NCBI GenBank assembly: GCA_963764715.1
Contig: CAVXTP010000022.1
Span: 192,001-256,000 of the forward strand
Reading direction: 5' to 3'
DNA length: 64,000 bases
DNA from: an uncultured Acidobacteriota bacterium
Lineage (GTDB): Bacteria; Acidobacteriota; Thermoanaerobaculia; UBA5066; Gp7-AA6
Shown: in pieces, positions 30,560-38,641 of the stretch
How positions within the stretch are numbered: position 1 is the stretch's first letter
Layout: each line of letters opens with the position of its first letter
Translations under genes and position numbers: made by a program
The notes under the pieces: generated by a model
What the model was told of the DNA's origin: nothing
Databases searched by the model: none
The model's input: the letters and a program-made list of their open reading frames with translations, nothing else

Positions 30560-30832
30560 GCCAGACCCCGGGGGCCGACGCGGGCAGGACGCCCCGGGGG
30601 GTGGGGCGGTTCTTCCGGGCGCTCGGGCCCGGAGTCGTCTCGGGCGCGGCCGACGACGACCCGTCCGGGATCGCGACCTACTCGGTCGCGGGCGCGCGTT
30701 TCGGGACGGCGTTGCTCTGGACGGCCTGGCTGACGTGGCCCCTGATGGCGGCCGTGCAGATGGCGGCTGACCCTGTCTGCCGCGACGCTCCTGATGTTCG
30801 CGGCCGCGATCGGGATGTTCGTCTTCCCCTAG
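30556..30832 (+). pseudogene. internally deleted NRAMP-family divalent metal transporter
   Basis: N-terminus LGPGVVSGAADDDPSGIATYS.AGA.FG..LLW...PLMAAVQM joined out of frame (about 30762-30766) to a hydrophobic tail LTLSAATLLMFAAAIGMFVFP*. Confidence 0.8.
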
Positions 30833-31662
30833 GCCGGGACCCGCCCCCGCCCCATGGCCCAGCGCACGCACGCCAGCAGCACGAGGCCGGCCCCGAGCGT
30901 CGTGACGATCGTGGCGCCGGTCGGCAGGTCCCAGAGGTAGGAGAGGTATACGCCGACGGCCGAGCTGAGGGCGCCCATGCCCCAGCCGATCGCGAGGCGG
31001 ACACCGAGCCGCGTCGAGAAGAGCATCGCCGAAACGGCCGGGACGATCAGGTACGAAAAGACCAGGAGGACCCCGGCAATCGGCACGGCCGAGGTCACGA
31101 CGAGTCCGAAGGAGCTGTAGAAGAGGAAATCCCAGAAGCGAATTGAGAGTCCCTGCCGCTCGGCCTCGGGCTCGTTCATCGAGATCAGGAGGAACTTCCG
31201 GCGGAGCGCGAAGTGGAAGGCCCCGACGAGCACGAAGAGGCCGGCCGTCTTCGCGAGCTCCGTCCAGGAGACCGAGAGGATGTTGCCGACCAGCATCTCC
31301 TTCAGGTGCTCGGTCTCGCCCGTGGCCTTGGACATCGCCAGGATCGAAGCGGCCGCCGCGACGGCGTAGGCGATCCCGATGATCGCCTCCTGGGGAATGC
31401 GGGTGCTGCGGTGCACCCGGGACAGCGCGAACACGGCGGCGCCGATCAGCGCGAAGCCGAGCGAGAACACGTGTCCCATGTCCGTGTGCATGTCGTAGCC
31501 GGCGAGGATGCCGACGGTCGTGCCGAGCGCGGCGATCTGGGCGAGCGAGAGGTCCACGAAGATCACGCCGCGCTCGACGACGTGCACGCCGAGGTACGCG
31601 AGCATCCCGGTGACGATGAGCCCGGCGACGAACGCCGGCAGGAGGACCTCGAAAACGCTCAT
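30829..31662 (-). CDS. Zn/Mn ABC-type transporter permease (ZnuB/MntB-like)
   Basis: LGVHVVERGVIFVDLSLAQ, EAIIG, GVLLVFSYLIVPA, DLPTGA. Confidence 0.9.
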   Translation of the reverse strand: MSVFEVLLPAFVAGLIVTGMLAYLGVHVVERGVIFVDLSLAQIAALGTTVGILAGYDMHTDMGHVFSLGFALIGAAVFALSRVHRSTRIPQEAIIGIAYAVAAAASILAMSKATGETEHLKEMLVGNILSVSWTELAKTAGLFVLVGAFHFALRRKFLLISMNEPEAERQGLSIRFWDFLFYSSFGLVVTSAVPIAGVLLVFSYLIVPAVSAMLFSTRLGVRLAIGWGMGALSSAVGVYLSYLWDLPTGATIVTTLGAGLVLLACVRWAMGRGRVPA

Positions 31663-32588
31663 GGCCTGGCTCCCTTCTTCGCGGCGAGGGCGCCGGCGAG
31701 AAGCTTCACGTCGTAGTCGAAGAGGGCTACGTAGTCCTTCGCCTCCGGGACGCCTCCGACCGAGGGGATGAAGGTCACGAGCGTCGCGCCCGTCTTCTCG
31801 GCCACGGCCTTCGGCGTCTTCTGGTCGAAGTAGGGCTCCATGAGGATGACCGGGATCTTCTTCTCGATCATCATGTTGATGAGGTCCACGGTGTGCGCGG
31901 GGGACGGCGGCACGCCGGGCTTGGGCTCGATGTAGCCGGCCGCGACGAGCTTGTAGTGCTTGAGAAAGTTCGGCCAGGAGTTGTGGTACGTGACGAGCTC
32001 GGTCCCGGCGTAGGGTCCGAGCTCAGCCTGCCAGCGCTTTTCGCCCTCGTTCAGCTTCGCCTCGAACGCGGCGAGGTTCGCGGCGTACTCGGCGGCGCCC
32101 GGGGGATCGAGCTTCGTCAGGCGGTCGGCGATCGAGTGCGCGATGACCCGGCCGTTGTCGGGGTCCAGCCAGTAGTGGGGATTGCCGAACGGGTGGACGT
32201 CGCCCATGGCGCGGGTCACCGTTCCGGTCGGCCGTTCGAGGATGTCGCAGCCCGACGAGACGTCGAGGTACCCCGACGCCCCCGGCCGGATCTTGTCGTT
32301 CCGGCTCTGGTCGATCAAGGGCGGCAGGTAGCCGATCTCGAGCTCGAGGCCCGCCACGATCAGGAGGTCCGCGCGCGAGAGCTTGAGGACGAAGGACGGC
32401 TTGGGCTCCACGAAGTGCGGGTCCTGGTACCCCTTCGCCAGCGCGAAGGTCTCGACGCGCTTGCCGCCGACGGCGTCGGCGATCGAGGCGAAGTCCTGGA
32501 GGCTGGTGACGATTCGGACGGCAGCGGAAGCCGACGACGCGGACAGGACGAAGAGCGTGGCGGCGAGGAGAGTCATGATGCGTTTCAT
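31659..32588 (-). CDS. Zn/Mn ABC-type substrate-binding protein (cluster A-I)
   Basis: Signal peptide, QDPHFVEPKP, GLELE, GNPHYWLDP, TYHNSW. Confidence 0.92.
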   Translation of the reverse strand: MKRIMTLLAATLFVLSASSASAAVRIVTSLQDFASIADAVGGKRVETFALAKGYQDPHFVEPKPSFVLKLSRADLLIVAGLELEIGYLPPLIDQSRNDKIRPGASGYLDVSSGCDILERPTGTVTRAMGDVHPFGNPHYWLDPDNGRVIAHSIADRLTKLDPPGAAEYAANLAAFEAKLNEGEKRWQAELGPYAGTELVTYHNSWPNFLKHYKLVAAGYIEPKPGVPPSPAHTVDLINMMIEKKIPVILMEPYFDQKTPKAVAEKTGATLVTFIPSVGGVPEAKDYVALFDYDVKLLAGALAAKKGARP

Positions 32589-32595
32589 GCGTACC

Positions 32596-33744
32596 TCAAA
32601 AAGGATGGGCGCCGTGGGCGCCGATGGCGAACTGGATCTGCAGGAAGCCTTCGTTGGCCCGGATGCCGGGAGCGTACTCCCGGTACCGGTACTCGGCGCG
32701 GAGCATCGAGAACTCGCTCGGCATGAACGTGAACGTCGCGGCGACCCCCTTGTCCCGCTGCGTCGCGTCGGTGGCGTGGTCCGAGAACTCGTACCGCGCT
32801 CCCGTGTACCAGCGGCGGCCGAGCTGGTAGTCGCCGCCGACGAAGAAGCCCTGCGCGTTCTGCTTGCCGTCGGGCTGCTCGCGCTGGCTCCAGAAGTACT
32901 CGCTGCGCAGGATGAACGAGCGGTACGGCTTTCCCTGGAGCGGCTTCCACCGGTAGACGAGATGGACGTTCTGGAGGCTCGTCGTGTTCGTCAGCGACGT
33001 GCCGTTGTGGCCGTACGCGTACGAGAAGCCCATCTCGAGGTTGTGGTCGTCGCCGAAGTCACGGTAGGCGCGGTACTGGCCGTTGTACGAGAGGTCGCCC
33101 TTGGAGGGCGCCGCGAAGAGAGGCTCGGAGCTGCCGTCGACGACCTGGAAGTAGGCCTCCGAGTAGGTGTCCCCTGGAAGCTCGATGACCTTGGAGAGCG
33201 AGATGCCCTCGCCCTCCCAGGTGTCCGGGGAGAGCAGGAGATCGTCGAACGGCAGGGGCTCGTCCACCCACGGCAGGACGTGAAGGTGCATCGTGTTGAC
33301 CTTGCCGAACTGCATCTTGAACTTCCCGGCCTTCGCCTGCATCTGCCAGGGCAGCGACAGGAACGTGACGTAGCCCTCCTCGATGTCGACGCCGTCGTTG
33401 TTGAACGAGAGGAACAGGTCGGCGCGGGCGTACGGATCGACGACCGCCTGGAAAGAGATCTCCGACTCCTCGACCTGGAACGCGGGGGAGGGCTGGACGG
33501 GGTTGTGGCCGACGGACGCGAGGAAGTTTCCGATGACGGCGATCGCCGGATTGAAGAACGTCGGGTTGACGGCGGGGGCCGCCGCCGGAGCGGGCGGGGG
33601 AGGCGGGGGCTCGGGCGCCGGCGTCGGTTCGGGGGCGGGCGCGGCGGGAACGGGCGTCGGTGTCGGCGACGGCGTGTCCTGCGCCCGGGCGCTCAGCGCG
33701 GCGCAGAGCGCCGCGGCGAAAACCAGAGTTGTTCGGACTTTCAA
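32596..33744 (-). CDS. outer-membrane beta-barrel protein associated with metal uptake
   Basis: Signal peptide, Pro-rich linker, amphipathic beta pattern, NTMHLH motif, C-terminal QFAIGAHGAHPF; TTG start with GGAGG SD. Confidence 0.78.
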   Translation of the reverse strand: MKVRTTLVFAAALCAALSARAQDTPSPTPTPVPAAPAPEPTPAPEPPPPPPAPAAAPAVNPTFFNPAIAVIGNFLASVGHNPVQPSPAFQVEESEISFQAVVDPYARADLFLSFNNDGVDIEEGYVTFLSLPWQMQAKAGKFKMQFGKVNTMHLHVLPWVDEPLPFDDLLLSPDTWEGEGISLSKVIELPGDTYSEAYFQVVDGSSEPLFAAPSKGDLSYNGQYRAYRDFGDDHNLEMGFSYAYGHNGTSLTNTTSLQNVHLVYRWKPLQGKPYRSFILRSEYFWSQREQPDGKQNAQGFFVGGDYQLGRRWYTGARYEFSDHATDATQRDKGVAATFTFMPSEFSMLRAEYRYREYAPGIRANEGFLQIQFAIGAHGAHPF

Positions 33745-33746
33745 AA

Positions 33747-33820
33747 TCTCCTCCCGGCTTCGACTCGGAGCGGGCCGCGGAATGCGGCCGCGCGTCTTAC
33801 GAGCGGCCGGAAGGAGGAGA
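33747..33820 (-). promoter_or_regulatory. SD-sequestering stem formed by the leader's S-P-P-S-G codons
   Basis: mRNA UCUCCUCCUUCCGGC (33820-33806) is complementary to GCCGGGAGGAGA (33758-33747), which contains the SD of the barrel gene. Confidence 0.7.
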
Positions 33821-34120
33821 GCGGCCCGGGAGGTCGAGGGCCGCGCGGCGGGAGAGGGCGCCGGTTTCGAGAGCGAAAGCGACGCGGGCGTCGGACGAAT
33901 CCACGGCGAGCGGATCGGGGGCCGGCGTCAGCAGCGCGGCCGCGTGCGTCAGGCAGGCGGGGCAGGCGTGGGGAGCGTCCTCCGGGTGGGCGCTCGAGAG
34001 GCCGCGGTGGGAGGCGAACCCGTCGGCGCCGATCGGCTCCGGGTGCAGGCCGAAGGCGGCGAGCAGCGCCAGCGCCGCGGCCGCCACCAGGACGGCCCGA
34101 ACCCCGGGCGCGGCTCTCAT
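33797..34120 (-). CDS. DUF2946/CruR/CutF-like leader (putative arrest) peptide
   Basis: 107 aa; hydrophobic signal-like N-terminus, His-rich HPEDAPHACPACLTH (CxxC), C-terminal GRSPP. Confidence 0.75.
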   Translation of the reverse strand: MRAAPGVRAVLVAAAALALLAAFGLHPEPIGADGFASHRGLSSAHPEDAPHACPACLTHAAALLTPAPDPLAVDSSDARVAFALETGALSRRAALDLPGRSPPSGRS

Positions 34121-34204
34121 CCGACGCAGCATTTCAGGCTCCCCAAGCAGGCGCCCGCGCATTCTATTCCGCGGAGGCCTCCGGGCGCTGCGTAGAATGC
34201 CGTC

Positions 34205-34867
34205 GTGACCACCGGTCCCCACGCCCTCGCGGCCCCCGGGCACGCGGCCCCGGCGGCCTCCGAGGCCCTGCGCCGGCGCATGCACTGGCTGCTCGGCCTG
34301 ACCTTCGTGCACGTCTTCGGCGAGGGCGGCCTCGCCCTCTTCGAGGCGGCCCGGACGGGCAGCCTCGCCCTGCTCGCTTTCGGCCTCGAGAGCGTCATCG
34401 AGGGGGGCGCGGCGCTCCTGGCCGTGAGGCACCTGCGCCACCTCGCCGACGAGGAGGAGGACCACGCGAGGCGCGACCAGATGCTCGCCCGCTGGATCGG
34501 CGTGTCGTTCCTCCTGCTCGCGACCTACACGCTGGGGCGGGGGACCTACGAGCTCATCGCGGGCAATCGCGTCGAACCGAGCGTGCTCGGCCTTCTGCTC
34601 ACGATCTTCGCCACGTTCGGCATGCCCGTCGTCGGGTACTTCAAGTGGAAGACGAGCCGGAGCCTTGGCAGCAAGGGACTGGCGGCCGAGGCCAAGGAGT
34701 CGATCGCCTGCTCGATCGACTCGGGGCTCACGATGCTGGCGATGGTCGCCGGTCTGCTGGCGTTGCCGCACTGGATCGACCCCGCCCTCTCGCTCCTGAT
34801 GGTGCCGTGGTTCCTGCGGGAAGGCCTCGCCCACGTGCGCGGCCGCGTCCACGCGCACGTCCACTGA
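34205..34867 (+). CDS. CDF-like cation transporter (TM domain only)
   Basis: GSLALLAFGLES.IE, LGSKGLAAEAKES, WIDPA motifs; His-rich tail HVRGRVHAHVH. Confidence 0.78.
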   Translation: MTTGPHALAAPGHAAPAASEALRRRMHWLLGLTFVHVFGEGGLALFEAARTGSLALLAFGLESVIEGGAALLAVRHLRHLADEEEDHARRDQMLARWIGVSFLLLATYTLGRGTYELIAGNRVEPSVLGLLLTIFATFGMPVVGYFKWKTSRSLGSKGLAAEAKESIACSIDSGLTMLAMVAGLLALPHWIDPALSLLMVPWFLREGLAHVRGRVHAHVH

Positions 34868-34975
34868 GACGAGGCTCCGCCGCGGGAGGGCGGGCGGGGC
34901 TCCGTTGTAGAATGGGCGCCGCCTGAATCCCCGGACAGGGTCAGCGCATATATCGTGTCGAAGGAGCATTTGCCG

Positions 34976-35305
34976 ATGTCGAATCCCAACGTTTCCCAGG
35001 TCTCCGACGCGAGCTTCGACGGGGACATTCTCAAGAGCCAGGTGCCCGTGCTGGTCGATTTCTGGGCGCCCTGGTGCGGACCCTGTCGCTCCGTCGCACC
35101 GATCGTGGACGACCTGGCGACGCAGTACGCGGGCAAGATCAAGGTCGCGAAGATCAACGTCGACGAGTCGACCGAGGTCGCCATGCGCTACCAGATCACC
35201 TCCATCCCCACCTTCATCCTCTTCAAGAACGGCCAGGTGGCGGACCGGGCCCTCGGCGCGCTGCCGAGGAGCGAGTTCGTCAAGCTCATCGACCGCAACC
35301 TCTGA
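34976..35305 (+). CDS. trxA: thioredoxin
   Basis: VLVDFWAPWCGPC, SIPT; GAAGGAG upstream. Confidence 0.96.
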   Translation: MSNPNVSQVSDASFDGDILKSQVPVLVDFWAPWCGPCRSVAPIVDDLATQYAGKIKVAKINVDESTEVAMRYQITSIPTFILFKNGQVADRALGALPRSEFVKLIDRNL

Positions 35306-35329: not shown

Positions 35330-35358
35330 AAAAGGGCCCCCGCGGGCCCTTTTTCTTT
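35330..35358 (+). terminator. intrinsic terminator after trxA
   Basis: AAAAGGGCCC-ccgc-GGGCCCTTTT followed by TCTTT. Confidence 0.85.
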
Positions 35359-35443
35359 GGCCCGATGTAAATTCGCGGCGCGCCGGCCTCGGAGGAGGAC
35401 GGTCGGGGAAGAAGGCTCCGGCGGGACCGGTTGGAAGGGGCGC

Positions 35444-36688
35444 ATGAAGAAACCACTGTGGGTGGCCGGCGTCGTGCTCGTGGTCGGCGCGGGCGCCTTT
35501 CTGCTGCTCGGAAGTCGGAAGAAGGCCGAGCCCAAGTACCGCACGGCCAGGGTCGAGCGTGGCAACGTCACGCAGACGGTCGCGGCGACGGGCACCCTGT
35601 CCGCGGTGACGACGGTCAAGGTGGGGAGCGTCGTCTCGGGCAACGTCGCGGCCCTCCACGCCGACTTCAACAAGAAGGTCAAGAAGGGCGACCTCCTCGC
35701 GGAGCTCGACCCGGCGCCGTTCATGGACAGGCTGGCTCAGGTGCGCGCGGCCCTGGAGAAGGCGCAGGTCGACCTCCGCAACTCCGAGATCTCCCTGCGG
35801 CGGCAGAAGGCCCTCTGGGACGAGAAGCTCGCGGCGCAGGCGGACCTCGACCAGGCGCAGGCCAACTTCGACTCGGCCGCCGCCGCCGTCAACCAGGCGA
35901 AGGCGTCGCTCGCCCAGGCCGAGACGGACCTGCGCAACAGCCGGATCACGGCCCCGATCGACGGCGTCGTCGTCGACCGCCAGTACGACGTGGGCCAGCC
36001 GGTGGCGGCGTCCTTCACCGCCCCCACGATCTTCACGATCGCGCAGGACCTCACGAAGATGCAGGTCTCGGCCGACGTCTCGGAGTCCGACATCGGTATG
36101 TGCAAGGTCGGCCAGCCGGTCCGGTTCACCGTCGACGCCTACCCCGACGAGACCTTTCGCGGGAAGATCGCGCAGATCCGGTTGAACGCGACCGTGAACC
36201 AGAACGTCGTGACTTATCCCGTGATCATCGAGGTCGACAATCCCGATCTCGCCCTCCGGCCGAGCATGACGGCGAACGTGTCGATCGACGTCGCCACGGT
36301 ACGCGACGTGCTGCGCGTTCCGAACGCCGCCCTGCGCTTCAAGCCGGAAGAGTCGGCGGCCTCTCCGGCCGCGGCGGCGGGCGGCGCCTCGGTCGAGGAG
36401 CGCGCGGCGCGCGGGACCGGAAGCGGGCCGGCCGGTGCGGCGCGCCAGTTCGACCGGTCCGGGGCCGGCGGCAAGCCGAAGCGGCCGGGGCAGACGGTCT
36501 ACACGCAGGGGCCCGGGGACAACGGCGCCCTGAAGCCGGTCGAGATTCGCGGGGGAATCACCGACGGGCGCTACACGCAGGTGGTCTCGGGAGATCTGAA
36601 GGAGGGGGACACCGTCGTCGTCGGTCTCGTGACGGCGAAGGTCGATTCCGCGGCGGGACGCAGCCCCGTGGGCGGCCGGAGATTCTGA
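35444..36688 (+). CDS. MacA-like periplasmic adaptor (membrane fusion protein)
   Basis: N-terminal TM, ATGTL...[24 protein letters not shown]. Confidence 0.9.
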
Positions 36689-36690
36689 CG

Positions 36691-37416
<726 letters not shown>

Positions 37417-37423
37417 GGGGGCC

Positions 37424-38641
37424 ATGCTGAAGTTCCTGACGATCCTGAAGGTCGGGCTCAAGGCGATCGCCCGCAACAAGATGCGCTCGATCCTGACGGC
37501 GCTCGGGATCATCATCGGCGTCGCCTGCGTGATCGCGATGATCGCCGTCGGCCAGGGCTCGCAGGAGGCGATCCAGGCCCAGATCTCTTCGCTCGGGACG
37601 AACTTCCTCATGATTTTTCCCGGAGTCGCCACGCAGTCGGGAGCGCGGATCTTCACCGGCCAGTCGACGATCACCGAGGAGGACGTCGAGGCCGTGCGGG
37701 CCGAGTGTCCCGCGGTCGCCTACGTGACGCCGATGTCGCGGTCGGCCGCCCAGATCGTGTCGGGCAGCATGAACTGGGGCACGAGCGTCCAGGGCGTGGG
37801 CGTCGAGTGGCCCTTCGTGCGTTCCTGGAACGTCGAGCGCGGCGTCTTCTTCGGCGAATCCGACGTGCGGGCCGCGGCCAAGGTCTGCGTCCTCGGATCG
37901 ACCGTCGCCAACGCCCTCTTCGAGGGCCAGGACCCGGTCGGACAGACCGTGCGGATCAAGAACTTTCCGTTCCGCGTGATCGGCGTGCTCGAGACCAAGG
38001 GCGGCAACTCCATGGGCCAGGACCAGGACGACGTGGCGATCGCCCCGTACACGACCGTGATGCGCCTGCTCAAGAAGACGCAGAAGATCGACATGTTCAT
38101 GGCGTCGGCCGTGTCCCGGTCGGCGGTCGAGGAGGCGCAGAAGCAGATCGAGGCGCTCCTGCGCCAGCGCCACCGGCTGGGGCCGGGCCAGGACTCCGAC
38201 TTCATGATCCGCTCGCAGCAGGAGATCGCCCAGACGGCGGACCAGACGTCCAAGACCCTTTCGGTGCTGCTCGCGTCGGCGGCTTCGATCTCGCTTCTCG
38301 TCGGCGGGATCGGGATCATGAACATCATGCTGGTCTCGGTCACGGAGCGGACGCGCGAGATCGGGATCCGCATGGCGATCGGGGCCAAGGGCCGGGACGT
38401 CCTCACCCAGTTTCTGATCGAGGCCCTGACCCTTTCGATCGCGGGCGGCGCCATCGGCGTCACCCTCGGCATCGCCGCCTCCCGGATCCTCGCCTGGAAG
38501 GCCGGCTGGCCGATCCACCTCGACGGCCGCGCCATCGCGCTCGCTTTCGGCTTCTCCGCCGCGATCGGGGTTTTTTTCGGTTTCTATCCAGCCCGAAAGG
38601 CATCGAGGCTGGATCCGATCGAGGCGTTGAGGTACGAGTAA
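37424..38641 (+). CDS. MacB-like ABC permease
   Basis: [55 protein letters not shown]. Confidence 0.93.

Follow-up and report, generated by a model that had tools for sequence, protein, structure and literature searches.

A putative RSPP arrest-peptide leader and a predicted Shine-Dalgarno-sequestering stem ahead of a ZnuA-type metal-uptake operon in an uncultured Acidobacteriota bacterium

The 64,000-nucleotide stretch analysed here (positions 192,001 to 256,000 of contig CAVXTP010000022.1, assembly GCA_963764715.1; hereafter the window) derives from an uncultured Acidobacteriota bacterium. On its minus strand, a small open reading frame (ORF) precedes genes for a porin-like outer-membrane barrel, a ZnuA-family binding protein and an ABC-3 family permease. 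A preliminary description of this DNA, made from its letters alone, had taken these genes for a metal-uptake operon, an assignment that the searches below bear out, and the small ORF for a metal-sensing arrest peptide whose stall codons sequester the barrel gene's Shine-Dalgarno (SD) sequence. A genome scan returned seven orthologous loci (L001 to L007), all in metagenome-assembled genomes (MAGs) of uncultured Acidobacteriota; with the window they make up the eight closely related loci on which all comparison at the DNA level was made.

The leader ORF and its relatives

The leader ORF (P0002; 33797..34132, minus strand) comprises 111 codons and a TAA stop (33799..33797), and its translation, a putative regulatory arrest peptide, reads MLRRMRAAPGVRAVLVAAAALALLAAFGLHPEP...HPEDAPHACPACLTH...LPGRSPPSGRS. 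The ORF, its export-like N-terminus, its His/Cys motif and its terminal GRSPP are as the preliminary description had them; the start is not. An internal ATG at 34120 would give the 107 residues that had been proposed, and the upstream ATG at 34132 is the likelier start because GGGGAG lies 6 nt ahead of it and the initial MLRRM is kept in all seven orthologous loci, as it is in most relatives. The leader is present as a single copy within the window. A 620-residue ORF listed in the same frame was rejected as an open-frame artefact of DNA with 70.6% GC.

The peptide is laid out as a basic n-region, a hydrophobic core, GLHPEP, a stretch of loose conservation, HACPACLTH, 40 residues without conservation, LPGRSPP (residues 101–107), four further residues and the stop. 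Residues 1–27 (34052..34132, minus) resemble a Sec-type export signal, with R3, R4, R6 and R12 in the n-region followed by a core of 14 hydrophobic residues; hydropathy reaches its maximum of 2.6–2.8 over residues 13–21. AlphaFold2 (AF2) places a helix over residues 9–28 (predicted local distance difference test, pLDDT, 79–90), the sole confident part of a model that, when built on an alignment of 92 sequences, offers no confident fold overall (pLDDT 65, predicted template modelling score, pTM, 0.32, with pLDDT below 50 over residues 42–56). The n-region, core and predicted helix give this small protein a likely N-terminal localization signal, a trait of the RAPP-like class of arrest peptides. 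Directly behind the core stands LHPEP (residues 29–33; 34034..34048, minus), possibly a metal ligand or a translocon contact. HACPACLTH (residues 55–63; 33944..33970, minus) is a putative metal-binding motif, the spacer from the CxxC to the arrest motif covers residues 64–103 (33824..33943, minus), and GRSPP (residues 103–107; 33812..33826, minus), the putative arrest motif of RAPP-like type, ends four codons ahead of the stop.

Relatives of the leader were found by a word-indexed search (13 proteins including the query, 59–83% identity), by searching 1.84 billion representatives exhaustively with HMMER (38 matches at E<=1e-3) and by a profile search (65 matches, none with a precomputed Pfam domain). 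Homologs from all searches are unnamed and unannotated; for the more distant ones, Atlas hints on taxonomy point to Gemmatimonadota, Nitrospirota and Acidobacteriota. The pooled set of 92 proteins leaves out the barrel and four long proteins among the HMMER matches (215–435 residues) that match the leader only N-terminally, within residues 3–65; it holds near-identical entries, and the counts that follow are not counts of independent events.

The preliminary description had staked its reading on conservation of the CxxC, the R(S/A/G)PP and the stem, and all three are conserved: CxxC occurs in 92/92 relatives, R(S/A/G)PP in 90/92 and the anti-SD/SD stem in 8/8 loci. The longer motif HxCxxC is present in 89/92 proteins, as is HPExP. 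The arrest motif is RSPP in 76 of the 92, RAPP in 13, RGPP in one and LSPP in two; a glycine immediately precedes the arginine in 87 of the 90 relatives that have it, and the two prolines are followed by three residues (56 proteins), four (18), five (14) or two (2). The gap between the CxxC and the RxPP is 43 intervening residues (61–103 in the leader) in 82/92 proteins and 42 in the other 10/92, unlike the separation of the first cysteine from the PE of LHPEP, which varies from 24 to 31. At single positions, the commonest residue has a share of 0.99, 1.00, 1.00 and 0.97 for H30, P31, E32 and P33; 0.97, 1.00, 1.00, 0.92 and 0.72 for H55, C57, C60, L61 and H63; and 0.97, 0.98, 0.85, 1.00 and 1.00 for G103, R104, S105, P106 and P107. 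By segment this share is 0.99 for GLHPEP and 0.84 for LxGRSPP, against 0.32 for residues 34–54 and 0.36 for residues 64–100.

Judged from these alignments, conservation of the leader is almost confined to four things: LHPEP, HxCxxC, GR(S/A/G)PP near the stop, and the fixed gap. A spacer of fixed length and free sequence that links a ligand motif to one that impedes translation fits a nascent-chain device, not a folded domain, and such a ruler would be a natural measure of the position of a sensor relative to ribosome and translocon. The leader is also the faster-evolving part of its neighbourhood, with 51–81% identity across the loci versus 66–100% for the adjacent genes.

Putative arrest codons and the predicted stem over the Shine-Dalgarno sequence

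The leader stop lies 52 nt ahead of the TTG start of the barrel gene (33744), and the GGAGG core of the SD stands 5 nt before that TTG, both as first described. The arrest region is encoded by CGC TCT CCT CCT TCC GGC, in which TCT CCT CCT is a run of rare codons: TCT accounts for 3/128 serine codons and CCT for 4/136 proline codons in the seven confident genes of the window, so the remark that the S-P-P codons are unusual in ending on T was well founded. The anti-SD arm, UCU CCU CCU UCC GGC (codons S105–G109; 33806..33820, minus), pairs with the SD arm GCCGGGAGGAGA (33747..33758, minus) in both the minimum free energy (MFE) and the centroid structure. RNAfold assigns the RNA of 33830–33735 (minus) -49 kcal/mol, compared with -37.95 +/- 3.39 kcal/mol for 200 dinucleotide shuffles, none of which was as stable (z -3.26); the longer segment 33832–33733 gives a z of -3.83. 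The predicted pairing of stall codons with the SD thus stood, and its register changed: in place of eight pairs and five more across a bulge, the MFE and centroid structures have 11 contiguous pairs between the P106-P107-S108-G109 codons CUCCUUCCGGC (33816..33806) and GCCGGGAGGAG (33758..33748). An alternative register, UCUCCUCC with GGAGGAGA plus CCGGC with GCCGG, buries the SD equally, and the predicted probability that GGAGG is unpaired in the free window RNA is 0.00.

The stem extends through the final leader codons and is capped by a six-pair apical hairpin, GGCCGC-AUUCC-GCGGCC (33773..33789, minus), for which 97.9% of alignment cells are paired across the eight loci with one compensatory pair (GC in six, AU in one, CG in one). 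We considered this hairpin as an intrinsic terminator and rejected it, since a terminator scan of 33600–34400 came back empty and no U-tract follows the hairpin. A search of 33000–35000 against Rfam returned no family.

The arrangement recurs in the orthologous loci. In 8/8 loci the leader stop is followed by 47–62 nt, an SD of the GGGAGGAG or AGGAGGA type and a TTG start, and the MFE structure joins the S-P-P region to the SD region. The z-scores of the stem over the eight loci are -3.83, -2.85, -0.96, -3.95, -3.01, -4.29, -3.50 and -2.02, and the probability that GGAGG is unpaired ranges from 0 to 0.21. When the 16-pair structure was laid on a MAFFT alignment, 91.4% of cells were paired versus 41–57% with the 3' partners slid by 1–3 columns. 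RNAalifold on the same alignment recovered the core stem and the apical hairpin alone, with a slightly unfavourable covariation term of +0.53; across the loci, the middle of the stem is variable and hard to align.

More telling than these pairing statistics, we suggest, is the choice of codons. The first arrest proline is CCT in seven of the eight loci and CCA in the remaining one, although CCT makes up 4/75 of the other proline codons in the same eight leaders. The wobble positions on either side drift, being T, T, T, G, G, C, C, T for the serine and T, C, G, T, C, C, C, C for the second proline. Since the CCT of the first proline is kept while its neighbours drift, the U opposite the central A of GGAGG is held against strong codon bias.

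The effect of a stalled ribosome was modelled with the first proline codon in the P site and the RNA removed as far as 16 nt beyond the point where that codon begins. In the window, the predicted cost of opening the region from the SD through the start codon fell from 17.9–18.7 to 5.5–7.9 kcal/mol, and the cost fell in 24/24 combinations of locus and segment length, by 1.0–13.9 kcal/mol. An occluded downstream ribosome-binding site (RBS) that the stall opens is a trait of the RAPP-like class; here the SD is paired in 8/8 loci and the modelled stall makes it cheaper to open throughout, with a drop in the probability of an unpaired SD in 2/8 loci.

Two further features of this RNA may be recorded. 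A small alternative hairpin can form around the barrel start (33733..33754, minus), pairing GAUUU with AAGUC in the window; a hairpin at the same site pairs GACUU with GAGUC in L003 to L006 and is used by RNAfold in L003. Such a hairpin might keep the barrel start partly closed even with the main stem open. The leader mRNA over 33770..34065 (minus) has a C content of 0.43–0.55 and a G content of 0.23–0.33 in 60-nt windows and resembles the 'C>G bubble' rut (Rho utilization) region of cruR.

A candidate metal-responsive arrest switch and its alternatives

Two copper-responsive leaders, CruR and CutF, had been named as precedents, each a DUF2946 leader in which an export signal and a Cys motif are joined by a Pro motif at the C-terminus, and the published accounts agree with this portrayal. 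CruR of Bordetella pertussis (Bp2923) is assigned to PF11162, and the DUF2946/CruR signature is reported as a CXXC that is followed, after 45 intervening residues (conserved within 1–2), by a RAPP three residues short of the C-terminus (Roy et al. 2022, PMC9426467). In the model put forward there, copper relieves the RAPP arrest and Rho terminates transcription ahead of the gene for TonB-dependent uptake; CruR needs neither its signal peptide nor elongation factor P (EF-P), and the intergenic region is 162 bp (PMC9426467).

The present leader resembles CruR as a small export-type leader at the head of a metal-uptake operon, with the ZnuA and ABC-3 genes downstream in the window and in 7/7 loci. 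It has the invariant CXXC, a near-constant motif spacing (43, or 42, in agreement with the published 45 +/- 1–2) and an R-x-P-P three to four residues from the C-terminus across the family; in the leader itself the RSPP lies four residues from the end, so that the position of the RAPP is matched and its second residue differs. It is likewise predicted to be poorly structured, and the polarity expected of it, uptake off with metal, is the same. It differs from CruR in the predominance of RSPP over RAPP, in an additional, invariant LHPEP, in an intergenic region of 52 nt folded over the SD as opposed to 162 nt with a Rho terminator, and in controlling a porin-like barrel and a ZnuA-type importer of the ATP-binding cassette (ABC) class instead of a TonB-dependent copper transporter. 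It also belongs to Acidobacteriota, whereas DUF2946 is described as mostly proteobacterial (PMC9426467). Among protein-language-model neighbours retrieved in a search restricted to named proteins, 19/30 fell in the DUF2946 set, with PF11162 on 13% of the best such cluster; we treat this proximity as a lead, not as a test of membership. Because the published features recur here, save for serine in place of alanine in most members, the leader family is probably a divergent, unannotated branch or an analogue of the CruR-type leaders, not a certified member of DUF2946.

CutF, from the cutFOG operon of Rhodobacter capsulatus, carries a Sec signal and a CxxxC, with a PPP at its C-terminus at a distance of 45 residues; the SD of cutO is shielded by a stem-loop, and copper prolongs the stall and turns cutO on (PMC9973294; bioRxiv 10.1101/2025.02.05.636593). 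Shared with the present leader, as far as these reports describe CutF, are the export, the C-terminal Pro motif proposed to stall the ribosome, the stem-loop shielding the SD, and a metal motif some 45 residues from the stall site that would sit at the periplasmic mouth of SecY. The peptide motifs part company: CutF has CxxxC and an EF-P-dependent PPP, neither of which the leader carries, and the leader has CxxC and an RSPP with two prolines only. The anti-SD of CutF is described within the intergenic stem-loop, whereas here the arrest codons themselves are the anti-SD, and CutF switches a detoxifying oxidase on with copper, whereas the importer here is expected to be off with metal.

The RAPP-like peptides (ApdA, ApdP, ApcA and SecM; the RQH family) are small secretory proteins with an R-x-P-P near the C-terminus, a variable N-terminal part and a downstream gene regulated through RNA structure (PMC10951233, PMC10987492, PMC12992588), all of which finds a parallel here. 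RAPP and RGPP are described as robust arrest seeds, and small secretory proteins bearing them are reported upstream of TonB receptors and of copper and other metal genes (Fujiwara et al. 2025, PMC12992588); in one of these the CxxC stands 47 residues before the last proline, counted by eye from the printed row. RSPP is about 5-fold under-represented in Acidobacteriota proteomes (bias 0.197), among the most under-represented tetrapeptides listed (PMC12992588). As its text presents it, that survey searched for RAPP and RGPP alone, and a family dominated by RSPP would therefore have been missed. The word zinc is absent from the main text of PMC12992588, and no ZnuA-type ABC importer context was found in the survey as given there; nor was LHPEP found in the portion of its supplements that was searched. 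A full-text literature search returned no description of a DUF2946/CruR or arrest leader ahead of a ZnuA-type importer. The sole zinc link found in the literature was a DUF2946 gene, CC2720, upstream of the Caulobacter czrCBA efflux genes (PMC4176598). CC2720 and Cupriavidus CzcI are DUF2946-type small proteins tied to zinc-family metal homeostasis, as the leader probably is; as described, they head Zn/Cd/Co efflux systems of the resistance-nodulation-division type, and CzcI is without a C-terminal Pro motif, whereas the context here is import and the Pro motif is invariant.

A model for the locus can be assembled from these elements. The leader would be a cis-acting arrest-type ORF on which the ribosome arrests, as it does on RAPP peptides, when the first proline codon occupies the P site and the second the A site. 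Parked there, the ribosome would hold the anti-SD arm and free the RBS of the barrel, and the binding-protein and permease genes, behind a 7-nt gap and an ATGA overlap, would be expressed through translational coupling. This core of the model we regard as quite probable. The fuller statement, in which metal relieves the arrest and uptake genes are expressed only when metal is scarce, draws on analogy with the known leaders, and we lean towards it with less assurance. The distance at arrest from C60 to the peptidyl-transferase centre would be 47 residues, enough to bring the cysteine just clear of the tunnel and to the exit of the translocon; this distance equals the 30 tunnel and 17 membrane-spanning residues by which Ozturk et al. 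place the CutF motif at the mouth of SecY (bioRxiv 10.1101/2025.02.05.636593). With metal plentiful, C57, C60 and H55, perhaps with H30 and E32, would bind it, and folding or a pull on the chain would release the arrest, so that the stem re-forms and uptake is switched off. With metal scarce, the stall would persist and the porin and the ZnuA-type importer would be made; Rho, terminating transcription on the C-rich leader RNA, may contribute as well. Zinc is the most likely metal in view of the ZnuA-type importer and the neighbouring gene for a cation diffusion facilitator (CDF).

A more specific version, which we hold to be doubtful, is a zinc-operated force switch: zinc would bridge the CxxC, placed at the periplasmic mouth of the translocon during arrest, to the exported, membrane-tethered LHPEP or H55, and closure of this loop would tug the chain and release the arrest. 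As the arrest codons double as the anti-SD, release would re-bury the RBS, giving these bacteria a translational control of the porin and the ZnuA-type zinc importer that is free of a regulator and has no Zur box.

Several results weigh against the arrest-switch model. The leader has no match to Pfam DUF2946 (PF11162) at E<=1, so that the profile search proposed at the outset came out negative, and only four of the 92 relatives match the family at E<=0.1, weakly (best E 7.9e-4). RSPP, an Ala-to-Ser change, is described as 'partially permissive' for arrest in ApdA and ApdP (PMC12992588). Stalling at RSPP and a response of the leader to metal are both inferred, polarity and metal identity are assigned by analogy only, and CutF, one of the two models for the analogy, is reported to work with the opposite polarity. 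In the modelled stall the probability that the SD is unpaired rises to only 0.19–0.51 in six loci and drops in L003 and L007, whose downstream coding sequence offers the SD an alternative partner. In L002, 34/200 shuffles were as stable as the native stem. Covariation, which the preliminary description had also looked to, is slight: the stem is found in every locus, and compensatory change occurs at just 2/16 pairs, 23–88 (CG in four, UA in three) and 49–64. Most core pairs are invariant and constrained by the codons and the SD as well, and the structure was derived from the same sequences, so the pairing statistics lend the stem modest support. Synonymous recoding gave a mixed picture, the native S-P-P codons not always coming near the top: among 96 synonymous versions ranked by the MFE of the whole segment they took ranks 6, 1, 4, 29, 17, 26, 16 and 66 in the eight loci. 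No gene for an ABC ATPase lies in the operon, either in the window (30829..33744) or in the 7/7 syntenic loci (about 5390–8300 in L001 to L007).

Four other explanations have to be weighed against this model. Rho-dependent transcription termination might be the main output, the stalled ribosome shielding a rut site and the SD stem being secondary. The leader mRNA is indeed C-rich and G-poor (C/G 1.35–2.3 in 60-nt windows from about 34065 to 33766), and CruR, the nearest system in peptide architecture, works through Rho (PMC9426467). The C-richness may, however, simply reflect Ala, Pro and Leu codons in DNA of such high GC content; the intergenic region is 47–62 nt and strongly folded in 8/8 loci versus 162 nt in cruR, and the SD is buried in every locus with a rare CCT kept to pair with it. 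We therefore think Rho unlikely as the principal output; the two outputs are not exclusive of each other. The same arrest device could instead run with the polarity of CutF, metal bound to the CxxC at the exit of the translocon prolonging the stall so that the operon is turned on by metal or by failure of the CxxC to form a disulfide. CutF, as reported, shares the output module of a stem-loop over the SD, a similar 45-residue geometry, the prolongation of the stall by copper and a requirement for an export signal such as the leader bears. Against this stand the importer-type genes downstream, whose induction by excess metal is physiologically implausible, and a peptide with the CruR-like CxxC and R-x-P-P near its end instead of CxxxC and PPP; the leader has two cysteines only, whereas the published disulfide model of CutF uses four. 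This polarity is, in our estimation, rather improbable.

Arrest or slow translation of the leader could also be real and serve something other than metal sensing, be it Sec export, thiol oxidation in the periplasm or a constant coupling of barrel to leader. Most characterized RAPP-like peptides are reported to monitor Sec or YidC through an N-terminal localization signal, and DsbA might take the CxxC as a substrate; a thioredoxin gene is close by at 34955..35305. Yet no Sec or YidC components are encoded downstream, the invariant H55, C57 and C60 and the constant 43-residue ruler agree with the signature of the metal-sensing DUF2946 leaders, and the operon is that of a metal importer beside a CDF exporter, so that a non-metal role seems quite unlikely. 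Least probable by far, to our minds, is a stable periplasmic or membrane-anchored metal-binding protein acting in trans, for instance a small metallochaperone, with the stem a matter of ordinary coupling. An export signal, His and Cys residues and the first place in a metal-uptake operon are what such a protein would have; a predicted structure without confident fold (pLDDT 65, pTM 0.32) and about 36% conservation outside the motifs at a strictly fixed spacer length, unlike the evolution of a folded domain, are not. Moreover, R-S/A-P-P impedes translation and is avoided in proteomes, yet here it is invariant at two to five residues from the end.

The arrest-switch interpretation of the preliminary description is thus supported as the best reading, and is strengthened by the fixed 43/42-residue gap and by the CCT codon for the first proline in 7/8 loci. 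It is not a new principle, being a CruR-like peptide joined to a CutF-like SD switch. Were it true, nascent-chain metal sensing, which to our knowledge has been shown solely for copper, in CruR and CutF, would reach a zinc-type ABC importer, another phylum and an RSPP motif. The same nine to fifteen nucleotides would encode both the arrest residues and the anti-SD, a compact combination, and zinc uptake would be controlled here after transcription, without a recognizable Zur operator. The concept is in part known already, RAPP-like leaders upstream of metal genes having been surveyed in 2025 (PMC12992588).

Operon genes, divergent neighbours and promoter gap

The barrel gene (P0001; 32596..33744, minus) starts with the TTG behind the SD GGGAGGAG and encodes a 382-residue porin-like outer-membrane protein that has a signal peptide and a Pro-rich linker and ends in Phe. 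Its Pfam match to BBP2 (E 1.1e-4) falls below the cutoff of that family. The AF2 model has 16 strands (pTM 0.68), and the best Foldseek matches are the 16-stranded porins OprP, MOMP, OmpT and OprO (E down to 2.5e-10, template modelling score about 0.5). All 3682 homologs are unnamed, and those with a named taxon come from Thermoanaerobaculia; an NCBIfam search with the leader and the barrel gave no match. The linker, TPSPTPTPVPAAPAPEPTPAPEPPPPPPAPAAAPA, lies behind the signal peptide at residues 24–58 (about 33570..33675, minus) and has six consecutive prolines in it; in many homologs the alignment covers no more than about 85% of the query, and the linker may be absent from these.

Seven nucleotides past the barrel stop begins the gene for the ZnuA-family (cluster A-I) substrate-binding protein (31659..32588, minus; Pfam ZnuA 3.6e-51). 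Its best solved relatives are the Synechocystis ZnuA structures 2ov1 and 1pq4 (E 2.6e-22), with which the histidines of DPH, NPH and YH align; we take these to be zinc ligands. The ABC-3 family metal permease (30829..31662, minus; Pfam ABC-3 1.1e-36) follows, its ATG overlapping the stop of the binding-protein gene as ATGA. The permease gene directly adjoins the convergent ribF, and the ATPase of the importer must be encoded elsewhere.

Gene order in 7/7 loci is that of the window: HlyD, thioredoxin and CDF; divergently from these the leader, barrel, binding protein and permease; and convergent ribF and rimO. In L003 (5567–6537) and L004 (5573–8314), the hits that tblastn gave for the barrel, the binding protein, the permease and the adjoining genes are split over several frames, which probably reflects frameshift errors of MAG assembly and not real pseudogenes. 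The divergent gene next to the leader encodes a short CDF-type cation efflux protein (34205..34867, plus; Pfam Cation_efflux 4.9e-9) and is syntenic in 7/7 loci; the Pfam-assigned thioredoxin gene (34955..35305) follows on the plus side, divergent and upstream of the leader.

Between the leader and the CDF gene, the divergent promoter gap (34161..34198, both strands) holds two conserved -10-like hexamers in the alignment of the eight loci. One TAGAAT lies on the minus strand (34166..34161), where it would serve the leader operon, and the other on the plus strand (34193..34198), 6 nt ahead of the CDF GTG; GCATTCTACGCA and GGAATA[G/C]AAT are conserved, unlike the GC-rich spacer that parts them. 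These hexamers may act as promoters. A strict sigma-70 consensus scan of 33600–34400 found 0 sites. The inverted repeat GCATTCTA...TAGAATGC was considered as a Zur/Fur-type operator and rejected: its symmetry is lost in 4/7 orthologs (one arm TACAAT, the other ATTCTA) and its spacer is unconserved, and for these reasons we read its arms as back-to-back -10-like hexamers. That the gap has no Zur/Fur palindrome, as already noted from the letters alone, agrees with the eight-locus alignment, in which no conserved operator-like palindrome was found there. The TAGAAT stands 6 nt ahead of the CDF GTG (34193..34207) in 8/8 loci, and the two -10 elements lie back to back about 26 nt apart; this position suggests that the CDF mRNA may be leaderless.

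At the far end of the operon, an 86-residue stretch on the plus strand (30571..30828) matches just the first 32 positions of Pfam Nramp (E 1.3e-4, below cutoff). It fills the roughly 270-nt gap between ribF and the permease, a gap of only tens of nucleotides in the loci checked (for example L001), and may be the N-terminal remnant of a gene for a manganese transporter. Past the thioredoxin gene, a MacAB-like efflux set (35357..38641, plus) comprises a HlyD-family adaptor and, as its permease, a MacB_PCD/FtsX protein; the DNA between the two shows a Walker A sequence like that of ABC ATPases.

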